From: Gemmatimonadota bacterium
Lineage (GTDB): Bacteria > Gemmatimonadota > Gemmatimonadetes > Gemmatimonadales > Gemmatimonadaceae
NCBI GenBank assembly: GCA_031372565.1
Contig: JANMLN010000150.1
Location: forward strand, 1 to 32,172
Direction of reading: 5' to 3'
Length of the DNA: 32,172 nucleotides
How positions within the stretch are numbered: the first letter of the stretch is position 1; each line of letters opens with the position of its first letter. Made by a program: the position numbers and the translations under genes. Shown in pieces: positions 2,543 to 32,172 of the stretch. The notes below the pieces were generated by a model. It did no database searches. It saw only the letters and a program-made list of their open reading frames with translations, and was not told where the DNA came from.

Positions 2543-3550
2543 ATGTGCATTCGACGTCTCGTTGCGCTCGCCGCTGTGGTGCTGACCGCCTGCGGCGGCC
2601 AGGAAAAGGCTGGTGACACCAAGGGCACCCCCGCGTCTGGGCTGCGCGTCGCGCTCCTCACGCCAGGTCCGATCTCGGATCAGGCCTGGAACGGCGGAGC
2701 GTATGCCGGGCTCATGCGCATCAAGGATTCGCTCGGGGCGCAGGTGAGCCATGTGCAGACCAAGGGACCACAGGACTTCGACGAAAACTTCCGCCAGTAC
2801 GGCGCGCAGGGATTCGACCTGGTCTTCGGCCATGGCTTTGAATTTCAGGAGGCGGCCACGCGCGTCGCAAAACAGTTCCCCAAGACTGTCTACATCACGA
2901 CGAGCGGACATACGCTCGGGGCGAATCTCGCCGGCATGGATTTCGCCTTTGAAGAAGGGGCCTATCTCGCCGGCATGGCCGCGGCCGCGGCCTCGAAGAC
3001 GGGCATTCTGGGCTGCATCGGCGGCGCCGAACTCCCCCCCGTGCGCGTGAGCTTCAAGGCATTCGAGCTCGGTGCCAAGTCGATCAACCCCAAGGTGCAG
3101 ATCCTCGTCGGGTACATCGGCAACTGGGACGACGTGTCGGCCGGCAAGGAGCAGGCGCTCGCCTTCATCGCGCGCGGCGCGGACGTCCTCTTCCAGAACG
3201 CGGACGCGGCCGGGCTTGGCATCATTCAAGCCGCGCGCGAACGCAAGGTGTACGCGATCGGCGCCAACTCGAACCAGAACGGCATCGCACCGGAAACGGT
3301 CCTTGGCTCTGTGGTCATCGACCTGCCCCATGCATTGCTCACCGTCGCGCGCGAAGTCCAGGAGAAGCGCTTCACCGCGCGCGTCATTGCACTCGGCATG
3401 AAGGACGACGTGGTCGCGTGGACGCCGAACCCGAAGCTGGTGTCGGTGGTGCCGCCGACCATCACCAAAGCCGTGGATTCCGTCGCGGCTGGCTTGCGCG
3501 CCCGCACGATCCGCCTTCCGGTCTCCGCATCGAGCGACTCGGGCAAGTAA
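2543..3550 (+). CDS. BMP-family ABC substrate-binding lipoprotein (nucleoside/purine type)
   Basis: Likely start is ATG 2543 (MCIRRLVALAAVVLTAC, lipobox LTAC). BMP motifs: GPISDQAWNGGAYAGL, FAFEEGAYLAGMAAA, YIGNWDD, GADVLFQNAD. Confidence 0.9.
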   Translation: MCIRRLVALAAVVLTACGGQEKAGDTKGTPASGLRVALLTPGPISDQAWNGGAYAGLMRIKDSLGAQVSHVQTKGPQDFDENFRQYGAQGFDLVFGHGFEFQEAATRVAKQFPKTVYITTSGHTLGANLAGMDFAFEEGAYLAGMAAAAASKTGILGCIGGAELPPVRVSFKAFELGAKSINPKVQILVGYIGNWDDVSAGKEQALAFIARGADVLFQNADAAGLGIIQAARERKVYAIGANSNQNGIAPETVLGSVVIDLPHALLTVAREVQEKRFTARVIALGMKDDVVAWTPNPKLVSVVPPTITKAVDSVAAGLRARTIRLPVSASSDSGK

Positions 3551-3556
3551 CCACGC

Positions 3557-4339
3557 ATGGCTGACGCGCTCTCCCTCGACCGTATCGCGCGGCACCTCGA
3601 CGAGGTGTTGCGCACGCGCGAGATCCCGGACTACCCGGGTGCGCTCAACGGTGTACAGCTGGACACCGATCGGCCGATCAGCCGGGTGGCGGTGGGGGTC
3701 GATGCGTCGCAGGCAGTGATTGCCGGGGCGATTGCCGCGGGGGCCGAGCTCCTCGTCGTGCACCACGGTCTCTTCTGGGGGGGCGCGCAGCGGATCGTGG
3801 GACCGATGCGCGCTCGGCTCAAGCCCGCGTTTGATGCCGGGCTCGCCATCTACGGAGCGCACCTCCCCCTCGACGCGCATCCCGAACTGGGCAACAACGT
3901 GCTCCTCGCCCGCGCGCTCGGGCTCGAGCCAACGGCCGGGTTCGGCCGCTACCAGACGATCTCCGTCGGCGTGAGCGGTACGAGCGACCTCGACACCAGC
4001 GCGTTGGTGGAACGCACGCGCGCGTACTCGCAGCAGGAGGGCGGTCAGCTGGTGGTCGCCGGCCCTGTGGCCGGCAAACGGACACGACGCTGGGCGCTGA
4101 TCACGGGCGCTGGTGCGTCCAGCGATTCGTTGCGCGAAGCGGCCGCACTCGGCGTCGATACGTTCATCACTGGCGAAGGCCCGCATCACACCGCGATCGA
4201 GGGACCGGAGCTTGGGATCACCATGCTCTATGCCGGCCACTACGCGACCGAGACGATCGGCGTGAAGGCGGTTGGTGCGCATCTCGAGCGCACCTTCGGG
4301 TTGCCGTGGAGCTTCATTCCGGCCCCGACCGGGCTGTGA
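3557..4339 (+). CDS. Nif3/YbgI-like dinuclear metal-centre protein
   Basis: DYPGALNGVQL, VHHGLFWG, HLPLDAHPELGNN, FITGE and AGHYATE motifs. Confidence 0.93.
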   Translation: MADALSLDRIARHLDEVLRTREIPDYPGALNGVQLDTDRPISRVAVGVDASQAVIAGAIAAGAELLVVHHGLFWGGAQRIVGPMRARLKPAFDAGLAIYGAHLPLDAHPELGNNVLLARALGLEPTAGFGRYQTISVGVSGTSDLDTSALVERTRAYSQQEGGQLVVAGPVAGKRTRRWALITGAGASSDSLREAAALGVDTFITGEGPHHTAIEGPELGITMLYAGHYATETIGVKAVGAHLERTFGLPWSFIPAPTGL

Positions 4340-5772
4340 CCGTTGCGGCCCTCGCGTTGGAGGGCATCACCAAACGATTCGGCGCGGTAACCGCGCTCGA
4401 CGATGCCTCCCTCACGGTGCGCGCCGGCACCGTGCACGCGCTGCTCGGTGAGAACGGGGCGGGGAAGAGCACCTTGATGCGCGTGGCCTTCGGCATGCTG
4501 GCTCCGGACCGCGGCACCGTGCGCGTTGCCGGCACCGCGCACACGTTCGCCACCGCGCGCGGCGCCATCGACACCGGACTCGGCATGGTGCACCAGCATT
4601 TCTCGCTGGTCCCCGCACTGACGGTCGCGGAGAATGTGGCGCTCGGTGGGCGGGGGCGGTTCGATCGCGCCGCGGTGGCGGCGTCGGTACGCGACATCGG
4701 CGCCGAGACCGGGCTGCTGTTGGATCCGGATGCGCGCGTCGCCACGCTGCCGGTGAGTGCGCAACAGCGGCTCGAGATCGTCAAGGCACTCTCGCGAAAG
4801 GCGCGCGTGCTGATCCTGGATGAGCCGACCGCCGTGCTGGCGCCGGACGAGGCGCGCGAGCTGCTCGCCTGGGTGAAGCGCTGGGCTGTGGGTGAGCGCG
4901 CGGCCGTGTTGATCACGCACCATCTCGCCGATGCCTTTGCGGTGGCCGACGACGTGACGGTGTTGCGTCGCGGTCGCACCGTGCTCGCGCGGGGCGTGGA
5001 CGGACTCACCGAGTCGGCGCTGGTGCAGGCGATGCTCGGGGAAGCGCTCACGGTGGCAAGCGGCGCACCGTCCGCTCACGATCGGACCGGCGCGCCCGTC
5101 CTTGCATTGGACCGCGCCACGGTCGTGGATGAGCGCGGCATCGAGCGACTGGCGCCGACCACGTGCGAGATCACTGCCGGCGAGATTGTCGGCGTGGCCG
5201 CGGTGGAAGGCGCCGGCCAGGCCGAGCTGCTTCGACTGCTGGCGGGACGGCTGCGTCCATCCTCGGGGCGTGCGACGGTGCCGCTGTCGGTGGGGTTCGT
5301 GCCTGCAGACCGGCATCGTGACGCCGTCGTCCTCGACATGCCGCTTGTGGAGAATCTGGCGCTCAAGGATGCCGCGCAGGCGCGGAGCTGGATGCCGTGG
5401 CCCGCGTTGCGGAGCGAGACCGACGCCCTGATGTCGCGCTTCGATGTGCGCGCGAACGGTCCCACGACGCCGATGCGCGCGTTGTCGGGCGGCAACCAGC
5501 AGAAGTTCGTACTCGGGCGCGAGCTCGCTGAGGGGCCGGTCGCGCTCGTGGTCGAGAATCCCACACGTGGGCTCGACATTCGGGCCACGGAGGAGGTGCG
5601 CTCGCGACTCCGCGCCGCGCGTGATGCCGGACTCGCCGTCGTGCTCTACTCGGAAGATCTTGACGAAGTGCTCGCGCTCGCGGATCGCGTGTTGGTCGTG
5701 CATGCAGGCCAGGTGCAGGCGATGCCGCCCGACCGCACGCGCGTGGGGCGCGCGATGCTGGGGGCCTCGTGA
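4336..5772 (+). CDS. ABC transporter ATP-binding protein (two NBDs, CUT2/nucleoside type)
   Basis: GTG 4336 overlaps the upstream stop. Walker A GENGAGKST, GMVHQHF, ILDEPTAVL, and a second domain with LSGGNQQK and NPTRGLD. Confidence 0.92.
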   Translation: MTVAALALEGITKRFGAVTALDDASLTVRAGTVHALLGENGAGKSTLMRVAFGMLAPDRGTVRVAGTAHTFATARGAIDTGLGMVHQHFSLVPALTVAENVALGGRGRFDRAAVAASVRDIGAETGLLLDPDARVATLPVSAQQRLEIVKALSRKARVLILDEPTAVLAPDEARELLAWVKRWAVGERAAVLITHHLADAFAVADDVTVLRRGRTVLARGVDGLTESALVQAMLGEALTVASGAPSAHDRTGAPVLALDRATVVDERGIERLAPTTCEITAGEIVGVAAVEGAGQAELLRLLAGRLRPSSGRATVPLSVGFVPADRHRDAVVLDMPLVENLALKDAAQARSWMPWPALRSETDALMSRFDVRANGPTTPMRALSGGNQQKFVLGRELAEGPVALVVENPTRGLDIRATEEVRSRLRAARDAGLAVVLYSEDLDEVLALADRVLVVHAGQVQAMPPDRTRVGRAMLGAS

Positions 5773-6809
5773 CATCGACCGCGATGCGCAGTGTGGCGCT
5801 CGTGCTCGCGCTCACCGCCATCGCGGTGGCGCTGCTCGCACTCATTCTCGGCGCCAGCGGAATGGACGTCGGGCGCGCCTTGCTGGCGCTCTCGCGCGGT
5901 GCGGCGGGTTCGTGGGATGCGGTGCTCTCGGGCACGCTCGTGCGCGCCACGCCGCTGCTCATCACCGGTCTCGCCATCACACTCGCCTTTCGCGCCGGGG
6001 TGCTCAACATCGGCGCCGAGGGCCAGTTGCTGATGGGGGCGGCGGCGGCGGCGGCCGTCGGACTCGCGTGGCCGGGGCTTGGGCTGCTTGCCGTACCGAC
6101 GCTGCTCGTGATCGGCGCGATCGCAGGCGGGGCCTGGGCCGCGATCGCCGCCGTGCTTCGCCTCCGCTTTGGCGTGCTGGAGGTGATCAGCACGCTCATG
6201 CTCAACTTCGTCGCACAGTACCTGTTGAGTTGGCTGGTGCGCGGTCCGCTGCAAGAGCCCCAGCACATCTATCCGCAGTCGGCGTCGTTGGCGGAGAGCG
6301 CGCGCCTGGCGACGCTGGTGCCCGGAACACGGTTGCACGCGGGGTTTTTGCTCGGCGTGCTGTTGGCGGGGATGCTGGCCATCGTCTTCGCGCGCACGGC
6401 GGCCGGCTTTCGCGTGCGGCTGGTCGGTGCGAATCCCGCGGCCGCGATCAGCGCCGGCCGCATCGATGCCGCGCGCGTCGCGTTCGGGGCGTTCGTGCTC
6501 AGCGGCGCATTGGCGGGACTGGCGGGAGCGGTCGAAGTCAGCGGCGTCACCTTTGCCCTCTACGAGAACCTGTCGCCCGGGTACGGGTTCAGCGCGATCG
6601 CGGTGGCGCTGCTCGCCCGATTGCATCCAGCTGGCGTGGTCGGAACGGCGACGCTCTTCGGTGCGCTCGAGGCTGGCGCTGTCGCCATGCAGCGTGACGC
6701 GGGGGTGCCGAGCGTGGTGGTGAGCGTCGTCGAGGCGGTGCTGATCCTGCTCGTCGTGGCGGCGGAACAGTGGCGGACGCGACGCGTGGCCGCGCAGGTC
6801 GGCGCCTGA
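5769..6809 (+). CDS. ABC transporter permease (nucleoside/sugar type)
   Basis: Multi-TM protein with FRAGVLNIGAEGQ, EVISTLMLNF and GYGFSAIAVALL. Confidence 0.92.
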   Translation: MTSTAMRSVALVLALTAIAVALLALILGASGMDVGRALLALSRGAAGSWDAVLSGTLVRATPLLITGLAITLAFRAGVLNIGAEGQLLMGAAAAAAVGLAWPGLGLLAVPTLLVIGAIAGGAWAAIAAVLRLRFGVLEVISTLMLNFVAQYLLSWLVRGPLQEPQHIYPQSASLAESARLATLVPGTRLHAGFLLGVLLAGMLAIVFARTAAGFRVRLVGANPAAAISAGRIDAARVAFGAFVLSGALAGLAGAVEVSGVTFALYENLSPGYGFSAIAVALLARLHPAGVVGTATLFGALEAGAVAMQRDAGVPSVVVSVVEAVLILLVVAAEQWRTRRVAAQVGA

Positions 6810-26353: not shown

Positions 26354-27001
26354 CTACCGGGTGCCGAAGAGGCGGTCGCCGGCGTCGCCCAGTCCTGGCA
26401 GGATGTAGCCCTGCGCATTGAGCTCGCGATCGAGCGAGGCGGCGAAGACCATCACGTCGGGATGGGCGTTGGCGAGCTTGGCGACGCCTTCGGGGGCGGC
26501 GACGAGGCAGAGGAAGCGGATGCGCGTGGCACCGGCCTTCTTGAGCGACGTGACCGCAGAGACCGCCGACCCACCGGTGGCGAGCATCGGGTCGAGCAGG
26601 AAGAAGTCGCGTTCGGCGGCGTCGCCCGGGACCTTGAAGTAGTAGTCGACCGGTTCGAGGGTGTCGTGATCGCGGTAGAGGCCGATGTGGCCGACGCGCG
26701 CCGAGGGGACGAGGCGCAGGATGCCTTCGACCATGCCGAGCCCGGCGCGGAGGATCGGGACCAGGGTGAGCTTCTTGCCGGCGACGCGCTTGGCCATGGT
26801 GTGCTCGAGCGGCGTTTCGACCGGGGCATCTTCGAGCACCAGCCCTGCGGTGGCTTCGTAGGCCATGAGCATCGCGATCTCGTCCACCAACTCCTTGAAG
26901 ATCTTGGTGGGGGTTTCGCGGTCGCGCAGGAGGCGCAGCTTGTGCTGCACCAGCGGGTGCTGCACGACGGTGAGCGTGGGGAAGGTCGGGGTGGTGCGCA
27001 T
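26354..27001 (-). CDS. upp: Uracil phosphoribosyltransferase
   Basis: [35 protein letters not shown] and [17 protein letters not shown]. Start ATG 27001. Confidence 0.98.
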
Positions 27002-27028
27002 GGGCGCGAAGCTACTACTATTTCGGCC

Positions 27029-27199
27029 ATGAAAGAATACCAAGCCGTGGTGCTCCGGCAGACGAAGCACGCGCAGGATGATGAGGAAGGGCTGACGGAT
27101 CTGCTGAACGAGCGGAGTCGAGGCGGGTGGGCTCCCGTGACCATGACGCAGGGAGACGGACGGCTGACGGTCGTGTTCTCGCGCGAGGCGGAGGGGTAG
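27029..27199 (+). CDS. Small protein, DUF4177-like (56 aa)
   Basis: MKEYQAVVL...[16 protein letters not shown]...VVFSRE fits the EY...LN...GW...F.R pattern. Confidence 0.7.
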
Positions 27200-27359
27200 C
27201 GGGGCCTAGCGTGGCGGCAGGCGCTGAAGCCGGGAGGGCGGGAGAGCGGTGGGCGGAACGCCGCTCTGCTTCGCTCCGGGCAATACGGCTTGGCGTCCGC
27301 TCGTGAGGCAGTCAGAAACCGCCACACCGAAGTGGAGCATGCGGCTCCGCTATCTCGAT

Positions 27360-27484
27360 GGGAAGCAGGGAGACCCGTAGTGACGCACTTTCACTCCGGA
27401 ATCCGAGAGAGAGGCGAGCAGCCCACAGGCAGATGGACCGACGAGGCACCACCCGTGTTCGTTCGCTGCAAGGCCTTTGACTGA
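27360..27484 (+). pseudogene. Orphan C-terminal tail of a putative polymorphic toxin (tail A1); 5' limit approximate
   Basis: Frame ends ...GEQPTGRWTDEAPPVFVRCKAFD*, homologous to the tail ending at 28532. Both precede paralogous secreted genes. Confidence 0.55.
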
Positions 27485-27493
27485 GGGCACGTG

Positions 27494-28012
27494 ATGAGCA
27501 TCCGAGCAACCTGGATTGCTGCGGCCGCTACCGCCTTCTTATGCGCCCACGCTTTGGGAGTTCTGGAGATGTCGGCGCAGTCAGTCGACAGTTCGCGAGC
27601 TGCCTCTGCGCACGCTGAAGGGGGCCGAAGCTACCGGCTCGTAAGCTGGGGAGGGCTTCCTCTCCCAGCAGTCGACTACGCCGACTCCGCCATGCGCGGG
27701 GATTCCCGTGTTGCGTGCAAGAGGGTTCGACACGATGCCGCGGCCCGTGTTGCAGCGTCGTCGTGGTACTATCGAGATAGCACCACCATCGAGTGCAACG
27801 ACGGAAGTCGGACCAACGCGTCGCGGAGTTCGCGAGGGTCTATTCGGCGTCGAGGCGGCGCAGTGTACTGGTGGAGCAATAGACGCCCAGACCCAGGGCA
27901 AGTGTTTCAAGCGTGGACATTTGGCGATACCCTGTACCTCAACACTATTCCCGATGCGCGAGGCGGCTGGGAGCTCTTGCGAGTGCGAGCTCCTATCCCG
28001 ACCCATCCCTGA
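27494..28012 (+). CDS. Secreted beta-rich protein, candidate immunity protein (family A, copy 1)
   Basis: Signal-peptide-like N-terminus. About 65% identical to 28542-29060 over a gap-free 121-aa stretch (hand count), with two conserved Cys. Confidence 0.75.
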   Translation: MSIRATWIAAAATAFLCAHALGVLEMSAQSVDSSRAASAHAEGGRSYRLVSWGGLPLPAVDYADSAMRGDSRVACKRVRHDAAARVAASSWYYRDSTTIECNDGSRTNASRSSRGSIRRRGGAVYWWSNRRPDPGQVFQAWTFGDTLYLNTIPDARGGWELLRVRAPIPTHP

Positions 28013-28231
28013 ACGTTCAATTCGAACTTCCCCACGTTCATCCGATCGTGACGTGACCTCGAGACCGGGGAGGTACACCGCTTTCGGCCGCCCCGCAACG
28101 AACGTGCGCCCTTGCATCAGTCCACATAGGGCAGCGGCGATCATTCGCAAGGCCTCCCGCCCGTTGCGATCGCTGCCACGCGGCACGAACTATGCCCTCC
28201 GTAGCAGATCGAGTTCAGCGGCGCCGCGCGC

Positions 28232-28532
28232 GAGGATCCGATCGGGCTGGCGGGGGGGATCAATCCATCTGCGTTTGTCGAGAATGATCCGGTCAGCCTC
28301 ACGGATCCGAGCGGACTGAAGGCTGGCGCCAAGTGCCCCTTCGGCATGAAGCTCGTCGTCTACCCGGACGGAACCTCAGGTTGTGAGCGAGGCGAGGGAT
28401 TCCCGCTACCGACGAGCTACACATTCGGATCGTATGACTGGGGGCGGAGCCACGGAGAGCGAACGATCACCAACCGGCAGGTGGACGGGAGGTCCGAATC
28501 CCGTATTTCTACGCTGCAACGCTATCAAGTGA
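28232..28532 (+). pseudogene. Orphan Rhs junction plus internally deleted toxin tip
   Basis: EDPIGLAGGINPSAFVENDPVSLTDPSGL (end of the Rhs core) then KAGAKCPFG...HGERTI. In another frame it ends SPTGRWTGGPNPVFLRCNAIK*. Confidence 0.85.
28277..28468 (+). repeat. 192-bp direct repeat, copy 1 (Rhs junction + pre-toxin segment)
   Basis: Gap-free match to 29413-29604 with 11 substitutions by hand count. Confidence 0.92.
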
Positions 28533-28541
28533 GGTCGGAAA

Positions 28542-29060
28542 ATGCGCTCGAGGATATGGGTCGCTGCTATCGGTGCAACGGCAATCACCTTCATCATGAC
28601 GCACGGAATCCTCGCATCGCCAGCCCCCGTGGCTCGAGGCCAAGCCACGTCCGACATGCGCACACAGTCGGCCCGTGAGTACCGCCTCGTTAGCTGGGGT
28701 GGGCAGAAGCTCCCGGCAGAGGACTATGCGGACTCAGTCACCCGCGGGAGAGCCCGCGTCGCTTGCAGGCTGATGATGCACGACGCCGTTGCGCGAGTCC
28801 GTGATTCGAGCTGGTTCTTTCACGATAGCACTACTATCGAGTGCTTGGATGGCTCAAAGACGAACACGTCGCAGCGTTCGCGCGGGTTCATCAAGCGACG
28901 AGGTAGCGCCGTCTACTGGTGGATTGACAAGCCGGGGACCTCGGGCGAAGCGTTTCAGGCGTGGACATTTGGTGATACTCTGTACCTCAACGTCATGCCG
29001 GCGCCGCGAGACGGCTGGGCGCTTGTGCGTGTGCGGGATCGTTCTCCGAGCCATCACTAA
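28542..29060 (+). CDS. Secreted beta-rich protein, candidate immunity protein (family A, copy 2)
   Basis: GAGG RBS, signal-peptide-like N-terminus, and YRLVSWGG.LPA.DYADS...DSTTIEC...FQAWTFGDTLYLN shared with 27494-28012. Confidence 0.78.
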   Translation: MRSRIWVAAIGATAITFIMTHGILASPAPVARGQATSDMRTQSAREYRLVSWGGQKLPAEDYADSVTRGRARVACRLMMHDAVARVRDSSWFFHDSTTIECLDGSKTNTSQRSRGFIKRRGSAVYWWIDKPGTSGEAFQAWTFGDTLYLNVMPAPRDGWALVRVRDRSPSHH

Positions 29061-29107
29061 TTGACCCTCTGAGATTGACCCAGAAAACGACGGCGGCGGA
29101 GAACCCT

Positions 29108-29392
29108 ATGCTGACGGTCGTCGATCAGTGGAGTCGCTGGAGTCCGATCGTGGACCCCGAGTTCTCCCTGCGCGGCCGCGACGTGGCAGCGGCCGTGGAC
29201 GCCGCGATCGCGGTCCACGCGAAGCCCGTGTCGGTGACCGTCGATCACGGCACGGAGTTCCCGTCCCGTCCCCTCGAGGACTGGGCGTACAGCCGCGGCG
29301 TAGCGCTCGATTTCACGCGGCCAGGAACGGGCACATCGAATCGTTCAACGGGCGCGTGCGCGACGAGTGTCTCAACGTGCATCAATTCACAG
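29108..29392 (+). mobile_element. IS3-family transposase (rve/DDE core) fragment, frameshifted
   Basis: LTVVDQWSR...TVDHGTEF...DFTRPG, then a shift to NGHIESFNGRVRDECLNVHQF. The usual KP.. residues are missing at the shift. Confidence 0.88.
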
Positions 29393-29412
29393 ATCGCGCC
29401 CATGACCGCGAC

Positions 29413-29604
29413 GTCGAGAATGATCCGGTCAACTTCACGGATCCGAGCGGACTGAAGGCTGGCGCCAAGTGCCCCTTCGGCATGAAGCTCGTCGTCTACC
29501 CGGACGGAACCTCAGGTTGTGAGCGAGGCGAGGGATTCCCGCTACCGACGATCTGGAAATTCGGATCATATTACTGGGGGCGGAGCCACGGTGAACGAAC
29601 CATC
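29413..29604 (+). repeat. 192-bp direct repeat, copy 2
   Basis: Matches 28277-28468 at an offset of 1136 bp. Confidence 0.92.
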
Positions 29605-30060
29605 GGCGCGATCGATCCCATCGTCGACCGAAGCATCGCGCGGTTACGCGACCCTAGCGATGGCGTCGACGTTGAAGCAATGAAGCGCGTGATGGCTTGC
29701 TCCGGGAAAATTCTCGACGCAGGACTTGCCGTTGCTCAAGACGGATTCTTCCTGTTCGGCGCAGCGCCGGCCGCGTGGGCAATGAAAGTCCGCCGTGGCC
29801 TGAACGGCGGAGCGAAACTAGATCGGGTGATGGACGTCTGGAAGGCGTCGTATGTGTCCGCGCAGCTGTTCCCAGGGAGGGCTGGGTTGGCAGGCGCGCG
29901 ATCGCTTGCCGGTTCGTTCTCGCTGAAGGCTGCGTCATCGGCGCTTCAGGGGGCGCTTCCAGAAATTCGGGATCTGATCTTCTCAACGATTCCCGTCGCG
30001 AACTCCTTCTCGGCGATATACGGGGCTGGAAAATGCATTCTCGAGAATGGTGGGATGTAG
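29413..30060 (+). pseudogene. Orphan Rhs C-terminal toxin cassette with an intact ~200-aa tip of unknown family
   Basis: VENDPVNFTDPSGL cleavage motif, then an open Ala/Gly-rich, partly hydrophobic domain ending AGKCILENGGM*. No Rhs body upstream. Confidence 0.85.
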
Positions 30061-30476
30061 ACTGGTCGGTCCGCGTCAGGAGGGGCGTTCATTACGGCGC
30101 AGTATGCGGGGCAAGCTTTGGTCTGGTCATCTGGCTCCTGACCACGCTGCAGGGCGAAAGTAGCGTGATCATCCACGGGATCCGCACGAGCGCGAACACG
30201 CTCGCACTGTCATATCTGACGGCGTGCCCGTTGGCCGGACTCGGAATCGGTCTCGCATGGCCCTTAATGCGCCATAAGTTCGTTGCCGCGTCGGTAGGCA
30301 TCGGTTGCATACTTCCACTGGCGATCGGAGTTGTGTGGTCACTGAAGGGCGGCGGAGAATGGGGCGCACTCGAGTCACGCACGGTTGCCATTGGCTCGGC
30401 CTTCCTCGGCCCAGCGCTCGGATTGGGTGTGAGAAATGCCGCGATGTGGAGCGTTGACGAGCCGCCGGAGGAGTGA
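30033..30476 (+). CDS. ~4-TM membrane protein, candidate immunity protein (family B, copy 1)
   Basis: Overlaps the toxin tip stop and has hydrophobic helices. LSYLTACPLAGLGIGLAWP is similar to 31130-31618. Start uncertain. Confidence 0.7.
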   Translation: MHSREWWDVDWSVRVRRGVHYGAVCGASFGLVIWLLTTLQGESSVIIHGIRTSANTLALSYLTACPLAGLGIGLAWPLMRHKFVAASVGIGCILPLAIGVVWSLKGGGEWGALESRTVAIGSAFLGPALGLGVRNAAMWSVDEPPEE

Positions 30477-30482
30477 GACTGA

Positions 30483-30620
30483 CCACAGTACAACCGGGCA
30501 GGCTCGTGGGCTCGCTCGCCCCCATACAGGCACCTGGGCTTGTTCGAATTAGGGAAAGGAATCGGATTTGGTTTCACCGCCGCGTTCGCTTGTGCAAAAG
30601 GACGCCTTTCCGGACAATGA
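30483..30620 (+). pseudogene. Start-less hydrophobic tail, putative toxin-tip remnant
   Basis: Frame reads ...LGLFELGKGIGFGFTAAFACAKGRLSGQ* and stops 10 nt before a small membrane gene. Confidence 0.45.
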
Positions 30621-30630
30621 GGTGTTACCG

Positions 30631-30846
30631 ATGCCAATTCGTGTGCTCGTTGCTCTGACTTGGCTCGTCGCGATCGTGCTGCTTGTGGCGGCGGGGATTG
30701 CCTTCGACGCCATGCATCTCTCTCGATGGGTCTGGCAACCAGCGATAGTCGTGCTAGGTGTCATGCTGTTCGGGCTTCGAAAACTTGCCGAACTGAATCT
30801 GACCGCCCGGCGTTCTGCCTTTCCTCCCGAAAACAGGCCATCGTAA
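30631..30846 (+). CDS. Small 2-TM membrane protein (71 aa), candidate immunity protein
   Basis: GAGGT RBS. Sequence MPIRVLVALTWLVAIVLLVAAGIAF...WVWQPAIVVLGVMLFGLRK. Confidence 0.65.
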   Translation: MPIRVLVALTWLVAIVLLVAAGIAFDAMHLSRWVWQPAIVVLGVMLFGLRKLAELNLTARRSAFPPENRPS

Positions 30847-30878
30847 CGTCGGAGGGTCCCACCCATGCACTGCCCTGA

Positions 30879-31070
30879 GGACCCAATGCAGACGAAACGA
30901 TATCGGCGTACGAATACGACCCCTGGGGCAACTCGCTGGGGGCGATCGAATATTGGGAGCAGCCGTTCCAGTATGCGGGGCGGGAGAACGACCGTGCGAC
31001 GGGGTTGTACTACTATCGGGCGCGGTACGATGACCCGACGATCAGGCGGTTTGCGAGCGAGGATCCGATC
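30879..31070 (+). pseudogene. Rhs repeat-associated core fragment (not in ORF track)
   Basis: Hand translation ISAYEYDPWGNSLGAIEYWEQPFQYAGRENDRATGLYYYRARYDDPTIRRFASEDPI, truncated at EDPI. Confidence 0.93.
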
Positions 31071-31129
31071 AGCGAGCAGTGCTGTGCATTGCTCGGGCGA
31101 GCAGACCGGGATAGCATAGGAGCCTTCGA

Positions 31130-31618
31130 ATGGAGAACAAGCTGACAGCACAAGTTGGCGAGGGTGGGTTGGCGAGAAGATGGTATGAACCTGCCGTGTT
31201 CGGCGCCGTGATGGGCGTATTGTTCTGTGCACTCGTCGGGTTGCAGTTCGCAATTCTTGGACGCGAAGCCACGGCCAAGCAAATGACCGAGCGCGGGCTT
31301 TCGGTCATCGGCCTTCTACTGTCGTACCTGATTGCCGGGCCCTCAGCCGGGGCCGTGCTCGGCTTGCTTCTTCCTCGTAAGCCAACAAGGACTTCGTGCT
31401 ACTTGGTAACGTCGCTCGCACTCAGCATTGGGTTGTTAGCACCAGCTACTCAGGTGTTCGGCAGCATTTGGAAGTGGAGCACCTTCGAGTTCGTGAGTGT
31501 AGTGATTCTTGCGCTCATTTTTGCGATAGTCGTGACGGAGAATGCTGTTCTGCCGTGGGTACGACATGGCGGCGTGCTCGGTGTAGATGGCAGAGACGAC
31601 AGCAACATCTCACCATGA
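31130..31618 (+). CDS. ~4-TM membrane protein, candidate immunity protein (family B, copy 2)
   Basis: AGGAG RBS. FGAVMGVLF...LSYLIAGPSAGAVLGLLLP...KWSTFE parallels YGAVCGASF...LSYLTACPLAGLGIGLAWP...EWGALE. Confidence 0.75.
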   Translation: MENKLTAQVGEGGLARRWYEPAVFGAVMGVLFCALVGLQFAILGREATAKQMTERGLSVIGLLLSYLIAGPSAGAVLGLLLPRKPTRTSCYLVTSLALSIGLLAPATQVFGSIWKWSTFEFVSVVILALIFAIVVTENAVLPWVRHGGVLGVDGRDDSNISP

Positions 31619-31888
31619 AGTGTTGACCTCCCCCCCGAGGCAACGGTTTCCCCATCCCAGGAACGTCGGGAACTGGGCCCCCGTGGTTCATCGTGGCGCT
31701 TGCGCAATACACGAAACGCGCTACCCGCACGGCTGCCGGCTCCGATTCAACAGCACTGCCTCACGGTCGCCTCGAAGCTCGGCAACACAACGACCGTTCG
31801 TGATCGCACCGGAGCCGACATGCCACCGGCCAGCAAGCGACAGCTCCCCCCGCCCGTTGCCGTAGCCGCCCCGCCGCACGAACTTGAG

Positions 31889-32033
31889 ATGACAGGTCCT
31901 CCCAAGACAGCGATTCTCGAAACGTTACTCACGATAGGAGAGAGCGCCATGGCTGGCCTCGTCCTCTTCGGGATCAACGCGGTCGGTCTTAGTGTCATCG
32001 CTAGGTCTAAGGCTATTCTGCAAGACCCACCTC
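31889..32033 (+). pseudogene. Possible small hydrophobic ORF interrupted by the IS3 element
   Basis: MTGPPKTAILETLLTIGESAMAGLVLFGINAVGLSVIARSK... runs into the putative IS left end. Confidence 0.35.
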
Positions 32034-32172
32034 TGAAGTGGCTCCGGTCTTCTGAACAGCCGGCTATGTAGACAGCAGGGCTCCCCGGGCGTTACATCGC
32101 CCTATCCCCAAGGAGCACCCCATGTCCCGTCGTCCCCGTCGCAATCACGCCCCCGCCTTCAAGGCCAAGGTC
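32034..32172 (+). mobile_element. Left end of an IS3-family element (OrfA starts at 32122 and runs off the window)
   Basis: TG-initial IR-like sequence TGAAGTGGCTCCGGTCTTCTGAACAG, AAGGAG RBS, and MSRRPRRNHAPAFKAKV typical of IS3 OrfA. Confidence 0.85.

Follow-up and report, generated by a model that had tools for sequence, protein, structure and literature searches.

The end of a 32,172-nucleotide stretch of DNA, contig C156 of a Gemmatimonadota draft genome (analysed whole and referred to here as the window), carries a series of gene fragments and small intact genes related to Rhs toxins. This region, 27200-32172, lies on the plus strand and is probably a decaying orphan array of Rhs toxin tips and immunity genes, in which the immunity genes would have been kept and the toxins would have acted on the cell envelope. 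The window accounts for at least six modules of the array and contig C114 for a further one. An earlier reading of the same DNA (the original prediction) had already described an orphan Rhs tip/immunity array, and this description stands: Rhs core pieces are present, and one tip and its following gene are homologous to a full-length Rhs protein and the next gene in a congeneric genome, G058. It had also stated, correctly, that there is no full Rhs gene in the window, and full or partial Rhs genes occur on six other contigs of the genome. The locus type is well known, and its tips and protector proteins belong to tiny undescribed families.

Module C is the one that could be validated from outside the window, the toxins of the other modules being deleted. 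Its toxin part, tip C (29455..30060, plus strand), is a complete Rhs C-terminal domain of 201 amino acids that has no start codon of its own; its end overlaps by 28 nt the start of immC (30033..30476, plus strand), which codes for a cognate immunity candidate of 147 amino acids with three to four hydrophobic segments. When 400 other genomes of the phylum were searched in six frames, tip C gave one strong match (E = 9.5e-36), in G058, where it lies in an open frame of 1511 amino acids that corresponds to a full-length Rhs with a signal-peptide-like N-terminus. The two tips are 42% identical (E = 3e-46) and colinear over residues 6-197 of 201; thus, the earlier claim that the toxin parts of the array are eroded does not apply to tip C, in which nothing but the Rhs body and a start codon is missing. 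The open reading frame (ORF) that overlaps the stop codon of the G058 Rhs gene is 39% identical to immC (E = 1e-24), and this overlap between toxin stop and immunity gene start is common to the window pair and the G058 pair. When 5.8 billion protein clusters were searched with a profile, immC and its G058 homologue were the only two family members, and a scan of the genome collection with the tip alignment returned the G058 locus again and nothing else. Since tip C and immC match the tip of a full-length Rhs and the gene next to it, they are validated, as far as homology goes, as a true Rhs toxin/immunity pair of an undescribed family, for which neutralisation of the toxin is predicted. The G058 Rhs gene (locus L026/L034) lies at a different chromosomal site from the array.

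Searches with tip C gave no Pfam, NCBIfam or PADLOC match, one chance-level match in a PDB sequence search with the tip alignment (E = 0.28) and an Atlas best score of 0.85, which is a lead only. No longer protein containing the tip was found, which is weak evidence, as the same search missed the 1511-residue G058 relative. A single-sequence fold, with a predicted local distance difference test (pLDDT) value of 42.6, suggests at low confidence that the Ala/Gly-rich C-terminal half is helical. By analogy with ionophoric toxins, the pair would most likely consist of a membrane-acting, ionophore-like toxin and an integral-membrane immunity protein.

Upstream of tip C the frame remains open. From a GTG start at 29128 to 30060, an unbroken frame of 310 codons runs through integrase debris and a core stub into the complete tip, and a fusion product is conceivable. 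If this frame and immC were expressed intracellularly, as a pair with a role in addiction or regulation, the open frame would be explained as part of an internal toxin-antitoxin-like module, and one report (PMC7043789) describes orphan Rhs elements acting as toxin-antitoxin modules. However, no evidence of a ribosome-binding site or a promoter was seen at 29128, and an envelope-acting toxin without an export signal may miss its target, which makes this explanation highly improbable.

The Rhs origin of the array is visible in its core pieces, three of which had been placed at 28232, 29413 and 30879. They were confirmed as two matches to the Rhs-associated core model TIGR03696 (length 76, curated cut-off 32.5 bits), one of them below the cut-off, and one core end of 14 codons. 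Core piece E (30879..31145, plus strand) matches positions 1-54 of the model over 30915-31079 (52.8-53.5 bits, E = 2.6e-14), above the cut-off; the core sequence breaks off after 'DPI', where a tail of 22 codons follows, and is 69% identical to the G058 Rhs core. Core end B (28232..28318, plus strand; ...DPIGLAGG...DPSGL) matches positions 48-76 and falls slightly below the cut-off (28.9-29.1 bits, E = 1.3e-6). The 14-codon core end stub C (29413..29454, plus strand; VENDPVNFTDPSGL) lies within a 192-nt repeat, in which 28277-28468 and 29413-29604 share 94% DNA identity. Modules B and C thus keep core ends of the DPSGL type, and modules A, D and F carry no core piece. No RHS_repeat match was obtained in the array, whose orphan frames have neither a YD-repeat body nor a start codon.

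Directly before core stub C lies frameshifted debris of an integrase core (~29108..29406, plus strand), which matches Pfam rve (37.1 bits, cut-off 32.6, E = 3.8e-9) and rve_3 (32.9 bits, cut-off 26.5, E = 5.4e-8) in two frames. Full-length NCBIfam transposase models score 21-28 bits on it, far below their cut-offs of 160-224, which identifies it as a fragment. The original prediction had spoken of IS3 debris among the modules; an IS3/IS481-type transposase is indeed what these matches indicate, and to this must be added a further insertion sequence (IS) that begins at 32032. Part of the debris region (29326-29416) is 83.5% identical to C22:6295-6205.

In modules A and B, the toxins have been reduced to their last ~20 codons. 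Tail 1 (27200..27484, plus strand) is a start-less frame and a remnant of the toxin cognate to imm1; its homology to tail 2 (28469..28532, plus strand), the last ~20 codons of the imm2-cognate toxin, is confined to its own last ~20 codons, from ~27422 (QPTGRWTDEAPPVFVRCKAFD versus SPTGRWTGGPNPVFLRCNAIK). Tail 2 is preceded by tip stub B (28319..28468, plus strand), which corresponds to the first 50 codons of a tip of the tip C type, forms part of the 192-nt repeat and is joined to tail 2 out of frame. Of the genes that follow the two tails, imm1 (27491..28012, plus strand) codes for a candidate periplasmic immunity protein of 173 amino acids with a hydrophobic, signal-like N-terminal segment, and imm2 (28542..29060, plus strand) for a paralogue of 172 amino acids. 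The two products are 54% identical, with a ratio of non-synonymous to synonymous divergence (dN/dS) of 0.28-0.34 at a dS of ~1.0-1.3, and this ratio indicates that purifying selection has acted on both genes ever since their divergence.

Relatives of imm1 and imm2 are scarce. A word-indexed search of the 5.8 billion clusters with imm2 found only imm2 itself, and HMMER, run in full against 1.84 billion representatives, yielded two distant relatives of the pair (P0002 and P0003; E = 2.5e-5 and 2.3e-4), both with hydrophobic N-termini. Among 200 genomes of the same family imm1 had no credible match, the one candidate at E = 3.8e-4 being rejected as it contains a stop codon. The AlphaFold2 model of imm1 is all-beta and of low confidence (pLDDT 60.5). 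Fold searches with this model gave a best Foldseek E value of 0.02 and a best VIA Z score of 8.4, to be read against a stated background of 7-8; the matches were small barrel lipoproteins, inhibitors and one immunity protein of a type VI secretion system (T6SS), none of them above background. For a small eight-stranded beta-barrel of the lipocalin/calycin kind, the fold considered for imm1 and imm2, these same scores are not well above background, and the best Atlas score for imm1, 0.87, is a lead only.

The ORF immD (30631..30846, plus strand), which has GAGGTG 8 nt before its ATG, codes for a hydrophobic product of 71 residues and is a candidate orphan immunity gene, the weakest of the set. 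Before it lies a spacer of 154 nt (30477..30630, plus strand) that matched nothing in searches. Toxin tails had been proposed to end at 27484, 28532, 30060, 30620 and about 31119: the first three are supported, the frame ending at 30620 (30483-30620) shows no homologue or motif and may be spacer, and the last was misplaced, since the frame of core piece E ends at 31145 and overlaps the start of immE by 16 nt. The gene immE (31130..31618, plus strand), with AGGAG 8 nt before its ATG, codes for 162 amino acids with four to five hydrophobic segments, and has distant homologues, often as tandem copies, in five of the 400 other genomes; two loci (L038 on G163:C18 and L040 on G503:C10) carry such genes as tandem pairs near contig starts. 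The array had been described as five modules, which is one too few: a sixth gene, orfF (31949..32031, plus strand), begins near 31949 as the N-terminal part of a membrane-protein gene (module F) and is cut by the IS at 32032. No member of the orfF family was found in the 400 other genomes of the phylum, nor was any relative of immD found outside its own genome.

The small genes share a number of features. Five of them (imm1, imm2, immC, immD and immE) have open frames, hydrophobic segments and a purine-rich stretch 5-9 nt before the start codon, in agreement with the claim that the downstream genes are intact and keep ribosome-binding sites. It had further been proposed that all candidate immunity proteins are secreted or membrane-bound, and signal-like or hydrophobic segments are indeed predicted in all of them, by hydropathy only. 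As every candidate has a signal-like or membrane-spanning segment by this measure, and by analogy, the cognate toxins probably act on the envelope. The families had been called unrecognised, and they are: none of the tips and immunity candidates gave a match of meaningful strength in Pfam, NCBIfam or PADLOC (PADLOC matched none of seven proteins), and relatives of tips and immunity candidates are nearly absent from very large databases.

In the window, five of six downstream genes are intact, as against one complete toxin part out of five or six. This imbalance has to be weighed against the possibility that the island as a whole, together with its small genes, is decaying junk without current function. 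Inert debris is favoured by the remains of IS elements, by the frameshifted chimera, by the gene that the IS interrupts and by the decayed copy of the flank, and a promoter scan of the array found 0 promoter-like sites where 0.9 were expected from shuffles. However, the scan was limited to a consensus of the sigma-70 type, which may not suit this phylum, and junk would hardly account for five small genes that keep their frames and ribosome-binding-like sequences beside destroyed toxin parts, nor for a dN/dS of ~0.3 between imm1 and imm2 at a dS of ~1.0-1.3. We thus regard inert debris as improbable. The view of the array as a reservoir of immunity genes, as originally proposed, fits the intact immunity genes beside eroded toxins and the dN/dS of ~0.3. 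A scan for terminators gave seven terminator-like sites, most of them within genes, versus 3.6 expected.

The array stands out from its surroundings. The host, a sediment bacterium whose genome is rich in IS elements, is represented by a 4.44-Mb draft of 201 contigs that is 95.85% complete. Positions 1-27200 of the window hold ordinary chromosomal genes of the origin region (parA, parB, dnaA, dnaN, rnpA, yidC, polA, an ABC transporter and upp), and the foreign array lies ~5 kb from dnaA. GC content is ~0.65-0.72 over most of the window and falls to ~0.59-0.63 from ~27200 on, and all open frames of the array are below the high third-position GC of the housekeeping genes. The upstream neighbours are upp and a conserved ORF of 55 amino acids, and DNA homology of this side to four congeneric genomes ends at ~27183-27201. 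In all three congeners with a usable flank (G058, G158 and G117), the 55-residue ORF next to upp adjoins a gene for a beta-CASP protein of the metallo-beta-lactamase (MBL) fold across a gap of 12-55 nt; the contig of the fourth congener stops at the insertion boundary, so that the count rests on three. As these flanking genes are adjacent in all three, the array is a strain-specific insertion between the 55-residue ORF and the MBL gene. In G117 (C59, 546-949; L031), the MBL gene beside the 55-residue ORF has suffered an internal deletion that leaves fragments corresponding to residues 1-87 and 412-460, and instability of this site is therefore not confined to a single lineage.

Within one study, contigs from three samples, one of which may be the source sample, match pieces of the array without differences. 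One contig from a second sample covers 26800-28174 and crosses the boundary at 27200 with zero differences, and further contigs reproduce 29522-30510 and 30509-31524, again with zero differences. The branch points in these contigs fall at the expected repeat sites, 28235, 29154 and 32034; parts of the stretch that were uncovered in some runs were excluded from the evidence. An assembly chimera could be ruled out by the contig across 27200, the identical reproduction of array pieces, and the split gene and target duplication that join contigs.

This junction lies at the end of the window, where the left end of the IS (TGAAGTGG...; 32032..32172, plus strand), including the first 17 codons of its first ORF, closes the contig. 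The genome has four contig ends that enter this left end and four that leave the right end, and with the element read as TGAAGTGG...CCACTTCT, three of the four flank pairs share perfect 3-bp flanks. The duplication CTC pairs C156 with C114; GAC and CAT pair C160/C113 and C16/C125, respectively, across copies of the same IS. Given its TG ends and the 3-bp duplications, the element may be IS3-like; its interior is absent from the assembly, and a related copy on C21 is a fragment. On C114 the orfF frame resumes right after the IS end and remains open to 439, and an intact paralogue that lies another 700 nt along C114 and ends at 1261 aligns with both halves of orfF. The IS-split gene and the target duplication show that C156 joins C114, and the array continues across the IS onto that contig, where the cut gene is followed by an Rhs YD-repeat fragment, the orfF paralogue and the MBL gene. 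Long tandem arrays of ~255-261-nt repeats, 70-87% identical, were seen at the ends of C16 and C110.

A trace of the MBL flank is also found inside the array. The segment 28046..28235 (plus strand) is 91% identical to C114:1322-1508, which consists of the 150 nt before the MBL gene and its first 11 codons, and has lost the start codon; its reading '...FSGAARE' runs directly into the Rhs core end 'DPIGLAGG...DPSGL' across a shared GAGG microhomology. Just before the IS-cut gene, 39 nt at 31846-31884 are 82% identical to part of this flank copy (28153-28191) and may represent a third, older copy of the MBL 5' flank.

These observations can be combined into a history of the array. An original module would have been the end of an Rhs gene, with a core end of the ...DPxGL type, followed by a polymorphic toxin domain and an immunity gene, and the array was inserted between the 55-residue ORF and the MBL gene. 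In four modules the toxin part is now deleted to ~20 codons or joined out of frame, and in module C it is complete but lacks the Rhs body and start codon; five small downstream genes are intact, and the cell would keep them because they protect it from Rhs toxins that neighbours in its own population deliver. The internal copy of the MBL flank suggests that the array may have grown stepwise by recombination, with the 5' region of the MBL gene as one anchor. A capture event would have involved two crossovers, a homologous one within the MBL gene and an illegitimate one between codon 11 of the recipient MBL gene and the Rhs core of the donor.

Orphan tips might instead be retained as material for recombination with a full-length Rhs elsewhere in the genome, by which the toxin deployed would change. 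Core-end stubs do precede tips B and C, tip C is complete, and toxin switching by recombination with orphans is reported for Salmonella (PMC3967940). A search for the parent Rhs elsewhere in the genome had been proposed, and TIGR03696 matches occur on six other contigs, as full or partial Rhs, four of them at contig ends. The core stubs, of 42-87 nt, show low protein similarity to these other cores (42-59% over 30-47 residues), and blastn gave no DNA match between them. The sole fully assembled full-length Rhs of the genome (C113, 94-4872, minus strand; L013), a protein of 1593 amino acids with a signal-peptide-like start, is itself interrupted in its tip by a different IS (end TGGACTTACCCC...) 38 codons after DPFGL; the same IS end occurs at four other contig ends. 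With one toxin part complete out of five or six in the array, these points argue against a switching reservoir, which we hold to be unlikely.

Orphan pieces and IS debris recur at other Rhs loci of the genome. C94 (L015) ends in a core with a glycine-rich tip, and also carries an orphan core and tip in its interior (3391-3960) and integrase debris (5717-6241). On C26 (L018, 140-1282), an Rhs C-terminus contains an HNH nuclease domain of the AHH type (PF14412, E = 4.6e-12), from which it follows that the Rhs tips of this genome include at least one known family. Zhang et al. (2012, PMC3482391) name gemmatimonadetes as one of the phyla with RHS-linked polymorphic toxin domains.

Several results weigh against the reading of the island as a decaying array of orphan envelope-targeted modules with retained immunity genes. 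There is no full-length Rhs upstream of the array, unlike in classical orphan modules. A search for homologues placed as full-length Rhs plus downstream gene had been proposed, with a lack of association with Rhs as the refuting outcome; for tip C and immC the result speaks for the original prediction, the sole immC homologue lying directly after a full-length Rhs gene with the homologous tip. Of the five genomes with immE-like genes, three have no TIGR03696 match and two do. Neither immD nor the spacer before it has supporting homology, and immD has no homologue within its own genome. P0002 and P0003 lie on contigs of at most 1.7 kb, and three scans of the collection for their surroundings gave nothing usable. 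The model of tip C is unusable (pLDDT 42.6), and Pfam, PDB-sequence and Atlas searches gave no sequence or fold link to pore-forming or ionophoric toxin domains such as those of the colicin type and Tox-WTIP. In addition, no match to TssC (PF05943) or PAAR (PF05488) was found in the 95.85%-complete genome, in which VgrG was not searched, and one of four congeners has PF05943.

More speculatively, and with considerable doubt, tip C and immC could be the first recognised pair of a new Rhs-borne, membrane-acting family, delivered by a signal-peptide Rhs in T6SS-less Gemmatimonadota, with the MBL-Rhs junction recording that modules are captured by one-sided homologous and illegitimate recombination instead of being displaced from a full-length gene already resident. 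The array leaves the accepted view of Rhs loci unchanged. It adds a tip/immunity pair of no described family and several candidate envelope-located immunity genes, in a phylum in which interbacterial antagonism has hardly been studied by experiment. It is also a clean example of immunity genes that outlive their toxins, and its internal flank copy and IS-split gene make the history of its assembly datable and testable.

The closest counterpart of module C is the full-length G058 Rhs with its downstream gene, which shares tip, immunity candidate and core (42%, 39% and 69% identity, respectively) and the same overlap, and differs in its full body of 1511 amino acids, its signal-peptide-like N-terminus and its chromosomal site. 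Integral-membrane immunity proteins are known for ionophoric bacteriocins (pore-forming colicins) and for E. coli EC93 CdiA-CT/CdiI. Module C resembles these systems in its integral-membrane candidate immC and in a tip with a predicted helical, Ala/Gly-rich C-terminal half, but no similarity of sequence or fold was found, and the likeness is one of analogy only.

Orphan rhs-CT/immunity modules are an established kind of element (Poole et al. 2011, PMC3150448; Koskiniemi et al. 2014, PMC3967940). The array is like the orphan rhs-CT/rhsI modules of Enterobacteria in its start-less fragments from the Rhs core region (...DPxGL), each with a polymorphic C-terminal domain and a small cognate gene, and in having several of these in same-strand tandem with IS remnants between them. 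It differs in that no full-length rhs lies upstream, most toxin parts are cut to ~20 codons, the host is a Gemmatimonadota bacterium in which no T6SS sheath or PAAR was found, and neither its tips nor its immunity genes belong to a described family. Ross et al. (bioRxiv 10.1101/471110) and a report on Serratia (PMC10539506) describe orphan immunity genes that occur in arrays and guard the cell from incoming toxins. Compared with these acquired interbacterial defence (AID) clusters and orphan immunity islands, the array shows no recombinase or mobile-element frame except for IS elements. What it has in common with them is a run of immunity-type genes kept without working cognate toxins, which fits a role in protection from toxins that neighbours deliver, and what sets it apart is that one can still make out the remnants of the toxins and the pieces of the Rhs core.

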